Part shown: positions 12,214 to 42,121 of the stretch, piece after piece
How positions within the stretch are numbered: position 1 is the stretch's first letter
Layout of the letters: the number at the start of each line of letters is the position of its first letter
NCBI GenBank assembly: GCA_934130105.1
Contig: CAKOXL010000002.1
Span: forward strand, 7,232 to 71,231
DNA from: an uncultured Bacilli bacterium
GTDB lineage: Bacteria > Bacillota_I > Bacilli_A > RF39 > UBA660
DNA: 64,000 nucleotides
Direction: 5' to 3'
Notes under the pieces: generated by a model
Database searches by the model: none
Told to the model about the DNA's origin: nothing
Seen by the model: the letters and a program-made list of their open reading frames with translations, nothing else
Position numbers and translations under genes: made by a program

Positions 12214-14586
12214 CTAATCATCAAAGAAATCATCAAAGAATTGATCATCACTAATATTATTATCAGCTTTTTTTACATCATTATCTAATTTATTAGTGTG
12301 AATTATAGGCTTTTCTTCTACTGAAGTATCATTATTATTACTAATAAAATCAGTTTTTGGTTTATCTTCTTTAATAGTAGAATTTGAATTTGATTTAATT
12401 AAATCATCAATAGTTAGCCTTTTTTCCTCTTTAACGCCTTCATCTATTTTTATAACATTTTTACTATCATCATTGATAACAGGTTTACTATCTTCTTTAT
12501 TTAAAGTACTAGCAGATATTTTTTCTTCTTCTACACTATTACCAAAAACATCAAGTGTTTTAGTATCACCTAACTTATTATCATCATTTTTCTTTTCTTC
12601 AGCTTCGATTTCTGCAATCTTAGCATCGATTTTCTTGATTAAATCATCAACATTTAAACCCATACCAGGATTATTAGTAGGTGCTTTAGGACGATTATTA
12701 GGAGTAGCAAACATACCATTACCATTATCTGGCATTTTATTAAATCCAGGTGGCATCATACCTTGATTTACCCCCATCATGCCTTGATTTACTCCCATCA
12801 TTCCAGGTATACCAGCACCACCATTAATACCTGGGTTATTAGCTGCTGGATTATTCATCATTTCCATTAACTTTTCTTTTTTCTTAGCTTTAACATACTC
12901 TCTAAGATCAAAAGTATGTACTTCTTCCTTATCACGATGTGGATATGAAGCTTTAGCATATTTCTTACCAAATTCCATTTGATAATATGGAACGAATTTA
13001 GTTTTAAATGGATTTTTACGCATACGCATGATAATAACTTCAAATTGTTTCATACGTTGTAAATCACTTATTGTAACTAGTGGTGTTGATGCTGTTTTAT
13101 CATCTTTCTTAGACTTAACCTCACCACACATCTTAGATATTTCCTCTAATGCTTTTAATTCGGTAGTAATCAAATAAATTATATTTCCACAGTTACCTTT
13201 AATTGTTTCAGCATTTTCTTTACCATAAACTTGGTCAAGCTGAGCAAAGTTCTGAATAATCATCGTAAAACGAATTTGTCTACTACGTGCTGCTGTAATC
13301 ATAGTAGTAATATCTTTAAGTGGTGGCATATTAGCAAACTCATCTAGTAAGAAATTAGTTCTAACCGGTAATTTTCCACCATGTTTTTGAGCAGTAGCAA
13401 TTAGTGTTTCATAACATTGCTTAAGTAAAATAGTAACAAGAGAATGGTAAGTCTTTTTTTCATCTTGAATAACGATATATAAAACAGTTGGTCTCTCACC
13501 AATTGATGATAACTCAAAATCACTATGACTTAACATTTCAGATAGATTTTCACGTGTTGCGAATAATTTAATCTTTTGTTTAAATACAGATATAATAGAA
13601 CCTTTAGTTTCACTAGGAGCCATAATAGTACCACTAGCGTTAGTATAAGCTGCTCCACCTGGATCCATCATATTGAAATATTCTTTCATATAAGTAGATC
13701 CACCAAATTTTTCTTCACCAACAGTTGTCATTAAACTAATACTATTAAGATTTACCTGATCTTCGGTTGCATCATCAAATAAAGCAAGTGAAAGTCCTGA
13801 AAAATAATCGGCTGATGTTTTCTCCCAGAATGGATCAGCATTTCCGGATTTCTCTTCATAAAGAATATTAGCAGCAAGGTCATCAAGTAACTCAATTGCT
13901 TTATCTTGATTACCACTTTTATACATACGATATGGAAGTGATAATGGATTCCAAGCATTACCATCTTGTGGATCACGGAAGTTTAATATTAAAACATTAT
14001 AACCTTTTTCGCGTAACATATTAGAAGTTTGTTCATAAATTTCACCTTTAGGGTCAGTGATAATCATTGATTCTTTATGTTTAGCCAAAACCTCAACAGT
14101 TGGAAAAATTACCGTCTGTGTTTTACCACTTCCGGTAGCACCAATTACTAATGAATGATATTCGCCATTATCAACCCAAACTTCATCTTTCTTTATAATA
14201 AGTGGAATTCCAGCTACTTGAGAATCAACATCTCCCGGTCTAATCATAGCTATTCCCTTATCTTCTTTTATTTCCTTTTCTTTTGCCCATCTACTATATC
14301 CTTTATTAGATTTTTCACCAATAGAAATACCTATACCACTTTCTCTTTCAAAGAAATATGAAGATACTGATGCAAAAATACACCCTAAAAATATAAAATA
14401 TAATACTAGTGTAACAGCAAGTCTACTAGAATCAAAAGCAGGAAAAGGATTAATACCATAAAATCTTCCATTAATAGCAAGTTCAGGAAAATTTAAAACA
14501 CCTAAACAAACTATATATAATAGAAATATAGCAAACAATAGAAAAATTAATACATCTTGTGCATCTGCTTTAAATTTTAATTTCAT
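12214..14586 (-). CDS. type IV secretion coupling protein, VirD4/TraG family, with long low-complexity C-terminal tail
   Basis: Two N-terminal TM helices, Walker A GATGSGKTQ, ITDPKGEIY, Walker B-like LLDEFANMP, IQNFAQL. I prefer the ATG at 14586 (GGAG SD; MKLKFKAD) over the TTG at 14601. The last ~220 aa are rich in N, G, M, D, K and E. Confidence 0.9.
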   Translation of the reverse strand: MKLKFKADAQDVLIFLLFAIFLLYIVCLGVLNFPELAINGRFYGINPFPAFDSSRLAVTLVLYFIFLGCIFASVSSYFFERESGIGISIGEKSNKGYSRWAKEKEIKEDKGIAMIRPGDVDSQVAGIPLIIKKDEVWVDNGEYHSLVIGATGSGKTQTVIFPTVEVLAKHKESMIITDPKGEIYEQTSNMLREKGYNVLILNFRDPQDGNAWNPLSLPYRMYKSGNQDKAIELLDDLAANILYEEKSGNADPFWEKTSADYFSGLSLALFDDATEDQVNLNSISLMTTVGEEKFGGSTYMKEYFNMMDPGGAAYTNASGTIMAPSETKGSIISVFKQKIKLFATRENLSEMLSHSDFELSSIGERPTVLYIVIQDEKKTYHSLVTILLKQCYETLIATAQKHGGKLPVRTNFLLDEFANMPPLKDITTMITAARSRQIRFTMIIQNFAQLDQVYGKENAETIKGNCGNIIYLITTELKALEEISKMCGEVKSKKDDKTASTPLVTISDLQRMKQFEVIIMRMRKNPFKTKFVPYYQMEFGKKYAKASYPHRDKEEVHTFDLREYVKAKKKEKLMEMMNNPAANNPGINGGAGIPGMMGVNQGMMGVNQGMMPPGFNKMPDNGNGMFATPNNRPKAPTNNPGMGLNVDDLIKKIDAKIAEIEAEEKKNDDNKLGDTKTLDVFGNSVEEEKISASTLNKEDSKPVINDDSKNVIKIDEGVKEEKRLTIDDLIKSNSNSTIKEDKPKTDFISNNNDTSVEEKPIIHTNKLDNDVKKADNNISDDQFFDDFFDD
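12751..12802. repeat. imperfect 21-bp tandem repeat within the VirD4 tail
   Basis: Two 21-bp units, 12761-12781 and 12782-12802, differ at 2 positions, with a partial copy upstream. Encodes GMMGVNQGMMGVNQGMM. Confidence 0.8.
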
Positions 14587-14602
14587 AACTCCACTCCCCA
14601 AC

Positions 14603-40556: not shown

Positions 40557-40558
40557 AA

Positions 40559-42121
40559 CTATTCTCCTTTCAACTTATAATAATATTGATAAGTACGTAC
40601 CGTAAATACTAAATCAACTTCATCACTATTTGCTACCTCACTTGGTACTATTAAATATAAATAGTCACCTCTATAAATTTTATTGACAGCAGGTTTTATT
40701 CTTACTAACTTATATTCATCGCCTACTTTATATCTTATTTTTCCATATTTACTTAAAAATTCTAAATACTTAGACTTAGTTATATTATTAAAACTTGCCC
40801 TAATGTACATTACTTTTTCATTTTCACTTGTCGTTACAGTACCTTGATATATTGGACAAGTATTAGTATTACATGACTGATAAGTATAATTTACACTATC
40901 TAATAAATCATAACTATTTATTTTAAAGTTAACACTTTCTGACAAATTAATAGGTATATTAAACTCTTCGTTTAATTTACTACTACCTTTATCTTTAAAT
41001 GTTGAAATATCTAAAACTTTTATCTTTACTCTCACAAATTTACCATCTTTATTTATATCTTGATACTTTAAAATAAAATTAGCATTACTGTTTGCTTCTG
41101 GTAATTCATAAACTAATAAATACGATGTTTCCTCTAATGCATTAATGCTTTTCCCTGTATACAAATTACCCATATCAGAAAAATAAGAATTAAATTTAGT
41201 TGTAGGAATATAATATTCATCATCTACAAATAGAAAAACATTTTGAGTGTCAAAAGTCCTAGATGTATTAAGTAAATTTTTAATATCTAAATCAACTAAT
41301 ACAAAATAAGTACCCTTCTCCGAAACGATATTTCCAGCATAATCTTTATCTGTTAAATAAACATTATTAATCTTTAATTGATAATAATTAGAATTAAATG
41401 TATCAGACATTTTATAAATTTTATTTTCTACATAAAAATAATTATAAAAATTGTAACCAATTATCCCAATTAATAAAAGTGTAATAATCATAAAATAAAA
41501 TTTATGTTCCAAGATAAAGTATTTTAAATTACGAACATGATACTTTATTTTACGAATAAATTTATCTTTATCAAATCCTACCTGAACTTCTACTTCTTCA
41601 CGGTCTTCTTCCTTTATTTCTAAAAATTCCTTATCTTCCTGAAAACCAAAATTTTTAAGATCTATTCCAATTGCCCTTATTAATAAAATAAGCATCATCG
41701 GATAATAAAAAAGTGTCGATATAAACATTAAATCCCTAGTAGCTCTAGCAGTTACTAGTTTATAACCTTTGAAAACTTGATATGTAAAGTAGTTATTAAC
41801 ATACATAAACAGTATAAATACTAATATATTAACTAATAACATTAAAATATAGCTAAAGTAAGGTTTATCTTTTCTTTTTAATAAATAAGAAAGAACAGCA
41901 GTAATTATAATAATAAATATAAACGATAAGGTTGTATATATATTTACATAATTACTAATAGGATTAATACTAACATTATAACTAGCAGTAGCCAAATATT
42001 CTTTAGCAAATTGATATAATTTAAAATCTTTATAGTAAATAAATATTACTAAAAGTAAAAGCAAAATATTAATTTTTTGAAAATATTTAATCAAAAAGGC
42101 ATACGGCTTTCTAATAATCAT
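40559..42121 (-). CDS. polytopic membrane protein with extracellular beta-rich C-terminal domain (first gene of the cluster)
   Basis: 4-5 N-terminal TM helices, an acidic linker (EIKEEDREEVEV), another TM, and a ~290-aa domain. AGGGAGG SD. Confidence 0.65.
   Translation of the reverse strand: MIIRKPYAFLIKYFQKINILLLLLVIFIYYKDFKLYQFAKEYLATASYNVSINPISNYVNIYTTLSFIFIIIITAVLSYLLKRKDKPYFSYILMLLVNILVFILFMYVNNYFTYQVFKGYKLVTARATRDLMFISTLFYYPMMLILLIRAIGIDLKNFGFQEDKEFLEIKEEDREEVEVQVGFDKDKFIRKIKYHVRNLKYFILEHKFYFMIITLLLIGIIGYNFYNYFYVENKIYKMSDTFNSNYYQLKINNVYLTDKDYAGNIVSEKGTYFVLVDLDIKNLLNTSRTFDTQNVFLFVDDEYYIPTTKFNSYFSDMGNLYTGKSINALEETSYLLVYELPEANSNANFILKYQDINKDGKFVRVKIKVLDISTFKDKGSSKLNEEFNIPINLSESVNFKINSYDLLDSVNYTYQSCNTNTCPIYQGTVTTSENEKVMYIRASFNNITKSKYLEFLSKYGKIRYKVGDEYKLVRIKPAVNKIYRGDYLYLIVPSEVANSDEVDLVFTVRTYQYYYKLKGE

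Follow-up and report, generated by a model that had tools for sequence, protein, structure and literature searches.

We describe a gene cluster in a 64-kb window (the whole stretch of DNA analysed here, ~27% G+C) from an uncultured gut bacterium, and we consider it likely that this stretch carries one conserved chromosomal cluster for a type IV secretion system (T4SS) of the MPF_FATA-like, pXO2/pAW63/pLS20 type with an integral Tad-pilus-like module, most likely domesticated for contact-dependent exchange. The cluster is not a Tad pilus locus merely abutting a T4SS. Its design is already present on Bacillus and Sulfobacillus conjugative plasmids, where it has mostly been mislabelled, and what the window holds is a chromosomal and probably domesticated variant.

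Transcription in the window runs nearly all from the minus strand, and every one of the 24 open reading frames (ORFs) between positions 12214 and 42121 lies on that strand and is intact. Four of the 23 junctions between them overlap (-23, -17, -4 and -1 nt), 14 span 1-26 nt and the remaining five measure 55, 60, 93, 105 and 153 nt, which agrees with the ~30-kb co-directional supercluster put forward in the original prediction (18 of 23 junctions overlapping or of at most 26 nt). No terminator-like hairpins were found on the minus strand in the intergenic parts of the cluster, and promoter scans were uninformative because their counts in this AT-rich window equal those in shuffled sequence. The genes of the Tad-like module and of the T4SS are the following, with predicted transmembrane (TM) segments where these define the protein:

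34454-34882, minus strand: DUF5411 pseudopilin-like protein, leader MSRG followed by a hydrophobic helix (Pfam DUF5411, 3.8e-48)
33586-34440, minus strand: CpaB/RcpC-like protein with N-terminal TM segment, SAF domain and RcpC domain (SAF, 4.1e-5)
31781-33559, minus strand: CpaF/VirB11-family secretion ATPase (Pfam T2SSE, 5.6e-26)
30868-31761, minus strand: T2SSF-like platform protein (TadB/TadC-like), 297 aa from the ATG at 31761 (predicted structure and plasmid homologs)
30083-30868, minus strand: second platform protein, paralog of the first (hhalign)
26667-26840, minus strand: 57-aa pilin-like protein with a hydrophobic helix after the invariant N-terminus MK[EA]ATGEL[NS][ML]T (alignment of 26 homologs)
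26152-26646, minus strand: 164-aa pseudopilin-like protein with a hydrophobic helix after the N-terminus M[RK][DE]A[IF]GG (family alignment)
25175-26137, minus strand: 320-aa conserved cytoplasmic protein, originally called TadZ-like (present in 107 related loci)
24668-25021, minus strand: VirB2-like bare two-TM hairpin of 117 aa (blastp to the other two VirB2-like proteins, 8e-25 and 9e-20)
23822-24574, minus strand: VirB2-like protein with signal peptide, Cys-rich ectodomain and hairpin (blastp to the 117-aa hairpin protein)
22649-23809, minus strand: VirB2-like protein with signal peptide, Cys-rich ectodomain and hairpin (blastp to the 117-aa hairpin protein)
20632-22644, minus strand: VirB6-like polytopic channel protein (Pfam TrbL_4, 5.7e-7)
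20294-20611, minus strand: two-TM VirB3-like protein (position and topology only)
19768-20316, minus strand: VirB4 N-domain (NF045975 model positions 99-276, 1.5e-14)
17984-19771, minus strand: VirB4 ATPase, C-terminal part (NF045975 model positions 296-893, 4e-103)
15349-17967, minus strand: membrane-anchored cell-wall hydrolase, SpoIID/LytB plus CHAP/NlpC-P60 (SpoIID 4.7e-18, CHAP 3.6e-6, NlpC_P60 1.8e-5)
14603-15340, minus strand: lipoprotein with a C-terminal TM segment (lipobox LPAM_1 3.7e-4, predicted topology)
12214-14601, minus strand: VirD4-type coupling protein (Pfam T4SS-DNA_transf 2.3e-61, TraG-D_C, TrwB)

The evidence that joins the two groups of genes comes from related genomes. 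Relatives of the 31781-33559 ATPase were collected in a scan of one genome per species, which returned at least 381, and the best 80 (69-92% identity) were used as loci; a second scan, centred on VirB4, contributed 80 metagenome loci (74-93% identity), so that both scans together cover ~160 loci, each comprising the 10 kb fetched on either side of the query gene and compared by tblastn of every window protein. Over 100 database clusters match the ATPase at 87-93% identity. All of its best 80 relatives are uncultured metagenome-assembled genomes from the gut (human, rabbit, chicken, ruminant and mouse samples), with labels that include Bacilli, Tenericutes, Acholeplasma sp. CAG:878, Candidatus Onthousia and Erysipelotrichaceae; the host lineage is one of walled, Mollicutes-related gut Bacilli. 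In most loci a single-strand order is kept that runs from the DUF4352, Ig-like, sortase-like and large Cys-rich genes upstream of the module, through DUF5411, the CpaB-like gene, the ATPase and the two platform genes, to the 57-aa, 164-aa, 320-aa and VirB2-like genes, VirB6, the VirB3-like gene, the VirB4 N-domain and VirB4. In the VirB4-centred loci this order continues downstream with the hydrolase and VirD4, and the rhodanese flank of the window is often present too.

Where the fetched sequence extends far enough, T4SS core genes lie downstream of the module in 44 of the 57 ATPase-centred loci having at least 9 kb downstream, platform or ATPase genes lie upstream in 27 of the 35 VirB4-centred loci having at least 9.5 kb upstream, and VirD4 follows VirB4 in 34 of 36. 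The two halves had been expected to co-occur and stay syntenic in relatives if they belonged together, and a chance juxtaposition in one genome is not borne out by these counts. In median identity VirB4 (78%) and the ATPase (74%) come close to the housekeeping GTPase BipA (83%); the other medians are 71% for the 30868-31761 protein, 67.5% for VirD4 and 64% each for the 30083-30868 and 57-aa proteins. Since order and pairing are kept across relatives, the two halves form one conserved unit, for which vertical inheritance is the simplest cause.

The same unit can be recognized on conjugative elements of other Firmicutes. The best plasmid matches of the ATPase belong to the pLS20 family, with 32.5% identity to pLS20 gene 37 over 98% of the length. 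The pLS20 operon starts with the adhesin Tie. Next come gene 36 for an N-anchored protein of 126 aa, gene 37 for the ATPase, genes 38 and 39 for polytopic proteins (268 and 243 aa), gene 40 for a 120-aa protein with an N-terminal TM segment, gene 41 for one of 47 aa and gene 45 for a VirB2-like hairpin, and then VirD4, an extended VirB6, DUF5592, gene 51 and VirB4, followed by the relaxase. In the published description gene 37 is named a putative VirB11 and genes 38-41 are listed as unknown (PMC8557374); pAW63 also carries the module, and its ATPase homolog is likewise named VirB11 (PMC9673590). A Priestia plasmid presents, beside T4SS genes, the order DUF5411, SAF protein, ParA-like protein, CpaF/VirB11, T2SSF, a 279-aa protein and DUF4320; the module also adjoins T4SS genes on a Clostridium sporogenes contig and an Enterococcus faecalis element, and an Exiguobacterium plasmid carries the ATPase and the polytopic pair, with no T4SS gene in the stretch fetched.

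Gene set and order in these elements and in the pLS20/pAW63/pXO2 family are nearly identical to those of the window, down to a VirD4 that also belongs to the CD1115 family. The shared parts comprise one or more adhesins, a DUF5411/pXO2_26-type protein, the ATPase, two polytopic proteins (~250-300 aa), an N-anchored protein (~120-160 aa) and a small protein (~47-57 aa), together with a hairpin of VirB2/TrbC type, VirB6, a VirB3-like protein with two TM segments, VirB4 and its separate N-domain, and the hydrolase. The plasmid systems are transmissible and possess relaxase, replication and regulation genes, whereas none were found in the window, where the cluster is chromosomal and lineage-wide. 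VirD4 stands at the cluster end in the window and before VirB6 in pLS20-type plasmids; the CpaB-like gene is found in the window and in Priestia but not in pLS20; and the window, unlike pLS20-type plasmids, has three VirB2-like genes, two of them with large Cys-rich ectodomains. A comparable arrangement has been described for Sulfobacillus thermotolerans plasmids pL15/pY0017 and the integrated Kr1 element, whose conjugation backbone combines T4SS homologs (TraG, VirB4, lytic transglycosylase) with 'T2SS' homologs (MinD-like, CpaF/TadA, TadB/TadC) (PMC6803676); these elements, likened to the window here by their published description, have a relaxase and plasmid stability genes and are borne on mobile elements. 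The original prediction had held that no monoderm locus uniting a Tad-type machine with a VirB4/VirD4 machine was described, a claim that does not survive the comparison with pLS20 genes 36-41, pAW63 and the Priestia, C. sporogenes, E. faecalis and Sulfobacillus loci (PMC8557374, PMC9673590, PMC6803676).

On the E. faecalis contig (L164, GCA_014853625.1) we further observed that the ATPase, platform and small-protein module adjoins Tn916-like ArdA, DUF961, FtsK_SpoIIIE-type and Rep_trans genes, with no VirB4 in the 10 kb fetched, and the Tad-like module may combine there with a different transfer apparatus.

Within the window, the ATPase contains all three strings on which its recognition had been based (GETGSGKT, IEDTLEL and SGHNILSTIH), and its Walker A, Asp-box and His-box are intact. 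The core, of the hexameric type, occupies residues 1-345 and is followed by an Asn-rich, low-complexity tail of ~250 aa (31781-32524), which varies widely in length among close relatives (404-592 aa in total at ~90% core identity). The gene shares its strand and a conserved cluster with VirB4, VirB6 and VirD4, here and on plasmids.

The two polytopic neighbours had been predicted to be TadB/TadC-like, and this assignment is upheld for both, by different routes. For the 30868-31761 protein, an AlphaFold2 (AF2) model built from an alignment that included 61 diverse plasmid homologs (mean predicted local distance difference test, pLDDT, 72.5) finds in Foldseek, as its only high-probability matches, the cytoplasmic domains of EpsF and OutF and the PilC N-domain, which points to a domain of GspF/PilC type. 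Searches by tblastn with the same protein reach Bacillales plasmid genes, of which the Priestia one is annotated 'type II secretion system F family protein', and these plasmid homologs match Pfam T2SSF (Priestia 3.4e-5, Exiguobacterium 7e-4). The 30083-30868 family aligns with the 30868-31761 family in hhalign once plasmid homologs are added (97.8% probability, E 8.3e-13, 129 columns); an earlier comparison restricted to shallow same-lineage alignments gave no match, and the single-sequence AF2 model of the 30083-30868 protein (pLDDT 48) is unusable for fold comparison. We assign this second protein a platform role because it is a paralog of the T2SSF-like one, mirroring the TadB/TadC pair. 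Judged indirectly, from sequence comparison and a predicted structure, the cluster has two putative single-domain T2SSF platform paralogs of the TadB, TadC type. The predicted CpaB-like protein with TM segment and SAF domain is also confirmed, with a SAF match of 24.5 bits that exceeds the cutoff of 21 and a Priestia homolog in the same position annotated as a SAF-domain protein; by its sequence, the window thus encodes a predicted SAF-domain protein of the CpaB/RcpC type found in Tad systems.

Three small proteins accompany this machinery. The DUF5411 and 164-aa proteins each combine a short leader with one hydrophobic helix, in line with their prediction as pseudopilin-like proteins. The former is the counterpart of pXO2_26 and pLS20 gene 36 (family leader M[SN]KGM), and its family lies directly upstream of the ATPase or the CpaB-like gene in Priestia and C. 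sporogenes; the latter has a weak blastp match to pLS20 gene 40 (E 0.002), and the Priestia protein at its position matches DUF4320 (3.5e-5). The 57-aa gene occupies the same position as genes of 47-48 aa in pLS20 (gene 41), C. sporogenes and E. faecalis. Of its original description as a Flp-sized pilin, the small size, hydrophobic helix and conserved N-terminus stand, and the Flp G/XXXXEY motif is missing. A TadZ identity for the 320-aa protein was considered and rejected: the protein matches nothing in Pfam, NCBIfam or PDB profiles, Pfam scans of 21 family members are empty, and hhalign does not relate it to the ParA-like protein encoded in the Priestia module.

The T4SS half is more readily classified, and hidden Markov model (HMM) families, blastp or both support its predicted VirD4, VirB4, wall hydrolase, VirB6-like protein and three VirB2-like hairpins; for the predicted VirB3/PrgI-like protein we find a two-TM ORF at the VirB3 position, a candidate by position and topology. 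VirD4 reaches 311 bits against the NCBIfam CD1115 family (cutoff 250, exceeded) and has two N-terminal TM segments and an acidic, Gly-Met-rich low-complexity tail of ~250 aa (12214-13000). The hydrolase exceeds the cutoff of TIGR02669 (108 bits; cutoff 83). The best families for VirB4 are those of Mycoplasma integrative and conjugative elements (ICEs; 4e-103, 346 bits) and CD1110 (1e-50), both under their equivalog cutoffs. VirB3 and VirB4 are divided over three ORFs in all relatives and in pLS20 (DUF5592, gene 51 and gene 52), and because this split is identical throughout, the split VirB4 is no pseudogene. The VirB6-like protein has eight predicted TM segments and a long C-terminal soluble extension and matches NCBIfam MMCAP2_0566 of a Mycoplasma ICE (2.7e-6); the VirB2-like array stays below threshold for Pfam T4SS_pilin (2e-3) and the NCBIfam Mbov_0395 pilin-like family (0.03). 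The lipoprotein encoded at 14603-15340 is weakly conserved among relatives. VirD4, a VirB6-like channel and a wall hydrolase are thus found together in one cluster, as for a monoderm conjugative-type T4SS.

Several observations weigh against the interpretation of the cluster as a domesticated T4SS with an integral Tad-like module. The label of the ATPase is that of the CpaF/VirB11 family, since by sequence its placement as TadA or VirB11 does not separate and cannot be assigned. Neither platform protein of the window has a direct Pfam match or a hit in PDB family-profile searches, and the Foldseek matches of the first (probability 0.63-0.97, target TM-score 0.54-0.73) come with E values of ~1. 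Except for the SAF domain, the CpaB-type matches of the 33586-34440 protein are sub-threshold (RcpC 4e-6 and 27.2 bits, just under the cutoff of 28.8; TIGR03177 CpaB 5e-9, sub-cutoff). None of the DUF5411, 164-aa and 57-aa proteins has Glu+5 or the Flp G/XXXXEY signature (for the 57-aa protein, neither Glu+5 nor Tyr+6 follows the Gly in 26 homologs, and Pfam returns no match, Flp_Fap included), and there is no A24 prepilin peptidase (TadV/CpaA) among the window ORFs, as had been predicted. The authors of the pLS20 study state that the operon is without pilus components (PMC8557374), and a filament has been seen for no member of this T4SS class. In about one fifth of relatives the cluster is broken, either after the second platform gene or before VirB6, and because the breaks fall at two places the three sub-modules are physically, and perhaps functionally, separable. 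Domestication, finally, is read from the distribution and conservation of the sequence, as its most likely cause.

One rival explanation takes up the first of these points and regards the ATPase as a true VirB11 serving only VirB4 and the VirB2-like pilins, its polytopic neighbours being lineage-specific T4SS subunits whose T2SSF likeness carries no mechanistic meaning and no type IV filament-like function. The VirB11 model does lead the NCBIfam search (TIGR02788 118 bits; TadA-type 99, TrbB 92, FlaI 79), H. pylori VirB11 leads the search of the family profile against PDB (93 bits; CpaF 90.6, archaeal GspE 83, FlaI 82), the core of ~345 aa is VirB11-sized, three VirB2-like genes lie just downstream, and the pLS20 and pAW63 literature names the homolog VirB11 (PMC8557374, PMC9673590). 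These model scores are nonetheless far under the curated cutoffs, with 118 bits against 250 for TIGR02788, 72-75 bits against 389-461 for the VirB11 models PRK13851 and PRK13900, and the other NCBIfam scores sub-cutoff as well, while CpaF is equal to VirB11 within 3 bits in the PDB profile search and the single sequence orders PDB entries as FlaI > CpaF > VirB11 at about equal scores. To our knowledge, known VirB11 proteins are not accompanied by T2SSF-type partners or CpaB-like proteins, and here the partner has a GspF/PilC-type domain, the pair is paralogous like TadB/TadC and a CpaB-like companion is present, so that we hold this explanation to be unlikely. The original CpaF/TadA designation of the ATPase stands as far as the T2SSE superfamily is concerned, a preference for TadA over VirB11 being not assignable (99 vs 118 bits); across 30083-34440 as a whole, HMM searches relate the neighbours, in the case of the platform proteins through plasmid homologs, to T2SSF and CpaB and give the ATPase similar scores for VirB11 and CpaF.

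The breaks bear on a second rival, in which two independent machines are neighbours, namely a Tad/Flp-type adhesive or DNA-uptake pilus upstream and a separate, functionally unlinked VirB4/VirD4 T4SS downstream. In four loci (L004, L062, L077 and L081) the cluster ends right after the second platform gene, and in five others (L060, L070, L073, L078 and L080) the small-protein and VirB2-like genes are kept and VirB6-VirB4 are not within 5 kb; housekeeping genes follow the breaks (RimM/TrmD/L21/L27, NusA, PPDK, GlyRS). Consistent with such a boundary, it is where the second platform gene meets the 57-aa gene that the window has its largest gaps and a foreign GT-C-like/FAD gene pair. The pairing is nevertheless kept in most related genomes and on unrelated Firmicutes plasmids, where the module lies inside the conjugation operon; no Flp motif, TadZ or prepilin peptidase was found in the window; and in the broken clusters the VirB2-like genes remain with the ATPase/platform side and not with VirB6/VirB4, which blurs the boundary on which the explanation depends. 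We regard two unlinked machines as improbable.

The preferred reading, a single T4SS with an integral Tad-like module, includes its domestication, which is suggested by what surrounds the cluster. One flank consists of housekeeping genes for BipA, rhodanese, LspA, RluD, RuvX, MltG and U32 peptidases, the other of those for flavodoxins, Dxs, D-Ala-D-Ala carboxypeptidase and PNPase, and some flank genes are conserved across relatives (rhodanese, BipA, thioredoxin). No integrase/recombinase or replication gene occurs among the ORFs of the 64-kb window, and its ORFs of at least 90 aa show no family match for a relaxase or Rep_trans, a few internal or overlapping ORFs being left unscanned; the absence of a relaxase covers the window and, in relatives, the 10 kb that flank the query gene to either side. 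Given its lack of mobilisation genes and its lineage-wide occurrence, domestication of the cluster for contact-dependent exchange with other cells is the most likely reading. Prophage and ordinary-ICE readings were rejected, since the window has no phage, recombinase or relaxase genes and the housekeeping flanks are conserved. A still-mobile ICE or a decaying remnant with relaxase, oriT and recombinase outside the window is highly improbable, for although all close homologs of known function are conjugation systems, VirD4, normally used for substrate export, is present and Mycoplasma ICEs (the best VirB4 match) are also without a canonical relaxase, the 64 kb lack recombinase, relaxase and replication genes within housekeeping flanks that are partly conserved across species, relatives exist in at least 381 species-level genomes with their order preserved and an ATPase nearly as conserved as BipA, and all ORFs are intact.

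How such a machine might operate can be outlined from its parts. The hydrolase would open the cell wall, VirB3, VirB4 and VirB6 would form a membrane translocon, and VirD4 would select or recruit substrates. The ATPase could dock on the TadB/C-like platform and extract small pilin-like and/or VirB2-like proteins from the membrane, building with the platform a short wall-spanning filament or conduit through the hydrolase breach, which the CpaB-like protein would encircle. Binding to the target cell would fall to the upstream surface proteins, Cys-rich or Ig-like, whose maturation probably involves the thioredoxin and the sortase-like enzyme described below. The cargo may be proteins, or DNA using a relaxase encoded elsewhere, and since VirD4 is present, export is favoured over ComB-like uptake.

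The closest functional parallel, by analogy, may be the chromosomal T4SS of Patescibacteria. In that group (e.g. Saccharimonadia) MPF_FATA T4SSs are chromosomal, mostly relaxase-less and equipped with arrays of VirB2-like (T4SS_pilin) genes, and they are thought to be co-opted for the epibiotic lifestyle and reported to be essential for epibiotic growth (PMC12102498, PMC12857230). Both they and the window system have a VirB4 of monoderm MPF_FATA-like type and arrays of VirB2-like genes, mostly come without a relaxase, and are chromosomal and lineage-wide in hosts with reduced or reduced-like genomes, the window system having the Tad-like module in addition; Patescibacteria belong to a different phylum, and no CpaF/VirB11 ATPase or T2SSF partner is reported beside their clusters, VirB11 being named only for a Gram-negative-type MPF_T cluster in one genome in a paper that uses no Tad or T2SS terms (PMC12102498).

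A bolder form of the proposal, which we put forward only tentatively and hold to be doubtful, would make the hybrid machine a core chromosomal trait, in which pilin-like and/or VirB2-like subunits are assembled into a wall-spanning filament for the VirB4/VirD4 translocon by an ATPase of CpaF/VirB11 type seated on the TadB/C-like platform, the machine serving not plasmid transfer but a lifestyle-defining, contact-dependent uptake or delivery of DNA or proteins with bacteria or host cells, with the same module at work in pLS20/pXO2-type conjugation.

Other known systems resemble the cluster in part. With Tad/Flp (type IVc) systems (Aggregatibacter Tad, Caulobacter Cpa and Micrococcus luteus tad) it shares the combination of a T2SSE-superfamily ATPase with a T2SSF-like pair, a CpaB-like SAF/RcpC protein and small hydrophobic pilin-sized proteins; unlike them, the window has no Flp motif, no TadV and no recognizable TadZ, its ATPase is no closer to CpaF than to VirB11, and its module is embedded in a T4SS. 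The IncI (R64) thin pilus and the PAPI-1 island set a precedent for DNA transfer in which T4SS ATPases work together with type IV filament machinery; PAPI-1 depends on its pilus, and its sole clear homologs of T4SS proteins are VirB4 and VirD4 (PMC12857230). R64 and PAPI-1, however, reside in diderm hosts and use type IVb (PilQ/PilV-type) components that are not Tad-like, and the R64 gene clusters are separate. Mycoplasma ICEs provide the best named families for the VirB4, VirB6 and bare hairpin of the window (Mbov_0397 VirB4, MMCAP2_0566 and Mbov_0395, all sub-cutoff), whose host lineage is itself related to Mollicutes. These elements have a fused VirB3-VirB4 and a DDE transposase, and we know of no Tad-like module in them. 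Literature searches on T4SSs in RF39 and on DUF5411/DUF4320 returned nothing relevant. Two apparent precedents were discarded, the 'TadA' match in a pCP13 paper being an author's name and VirB11 in lactococcal papers being confined to general introductions or reference lists.

The cluster and its immediate surroundings contain further genes outside the two sets considered so far:

42196-42636, plus strand: divergent secreted or lipoprotein thioredoxin, TraF/TrbB-like thiol-disulfide isomerase (Pfam Thioredoxin, 8.5e-12)
40559-42121, minus strand: first cluster gene, polytopic protein with an extracellular DUF4352 domain (Pfam DUF4352, 1.3e-6; five predicted TM segments)
38727-40556, minus strand: N-terminally anchored surface protein with a bacterial Ig-like domain (Pfam Bact_surface_Ig-like, 2.4e-15)
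37932-38666, minus strand: sortase-like protein, weak class B match (Pfam Sortase 6e-4; NCBIfam sortase_srtB 1.1e-12, 48 bits, cutoff 154)
34892-37915, minus strand: 1007-aa secreted Cys-rich protein (N-terminal signal-like segment; no Pfam or NCBIfam match)
28415-29977, minus strand: FAD-dependent oxidoreductase (Amino_oxidase 8e-15; NCBIfam PRK07208-type 'hypothetical protein', 796 bits)
26896-28431, minus strand: polytopic 511-aa protein, GT-C-like, of no family (family scans)

The upstream surface genes travel with the cluster: the DUF4352 gene keeps its position in 57 loci, and the Ig-like gene, whose product is a candidate adhesin, and the sortase-like gene are syntenic in 58 and 48 loci. 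The position of the 1007-aa protein is held in plasmid relatives by the thioester adhesin Tie of pLS20, an Ig-like protein in Priestia and a PXO2_28-type protein in C. sporogenes. Neither of the surface proteins beside the sortase-like gene (34892-37915 and 38727-40556) ends with a recognizable sorting signal and TM anchor. The thioredoxin (DUF6568 2.6e-6, TraF 1.4e-5, NCBIfam F-type TrbB 2e-4) was found in 24 related loci, always on the opposite strand to the cluster and, in the loci inspected, adjoining its first gene; it probably assists the many Cys-rich surface proteins that the cluster encodes. Cys-rich sequences include the products of 34892-37915 and 22649-24574 and the C-terminus of the 57-aa protein.

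The 26896-29977 gene pair sits between the platform genes and the pilin-like genes and belongs to neither machine. Most related loci are without it, and the few exceptions have it in a different place or on the opposite strand. In L055 it separates the 320-aa gene from the VirB2-like genes and in L058 it lies upstream of the cluster, with only the polytopic gene of the pair detected in two more loci (L006, upstream; L003, opposite strand). The pair may act as a glycan-modifying accessory and join the cluster repeatedly. Just outside the cluster, among housekeeping genes, we also noted a 287-aa ORF (8959-9822) whose product, with a single TM segment, combines a repetitive, Asn-rich N-terminus with an ectodomain that contains Cys; it matches no family.

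In the textbook view, Gram-positive T4SSs operate without VirB11-type ATPases or pili. A 2025 reference review states that they 'universally lack VirB11 homologs' and that among monoderms only Patescibacteria systems could elaborate conjugative pili (PMC12857230). The Tad-like module of monoderm T4SSs is clearly under-recognized. Together with its plasmid relatives, the cluster would define a class of monoderm T4SS with a third ATPase, a filament-style platform, and CpaB-like and pilin-sized proteins, and the module offers a concrete candidate for how a thick wall is crossed and mating contact is formed. If this holds true, a hidden filament module would also operate in pLS20/pXO2-type conjugation, contrary to the textbook view. 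The conservation of a relaxase-less cluster in the core genome suggests, after Patescibacteria, a second conjugation machine domesticated for cell-cell interaction, and the cluster could give a handle on the biology of an abundant uncultured gut lineage.

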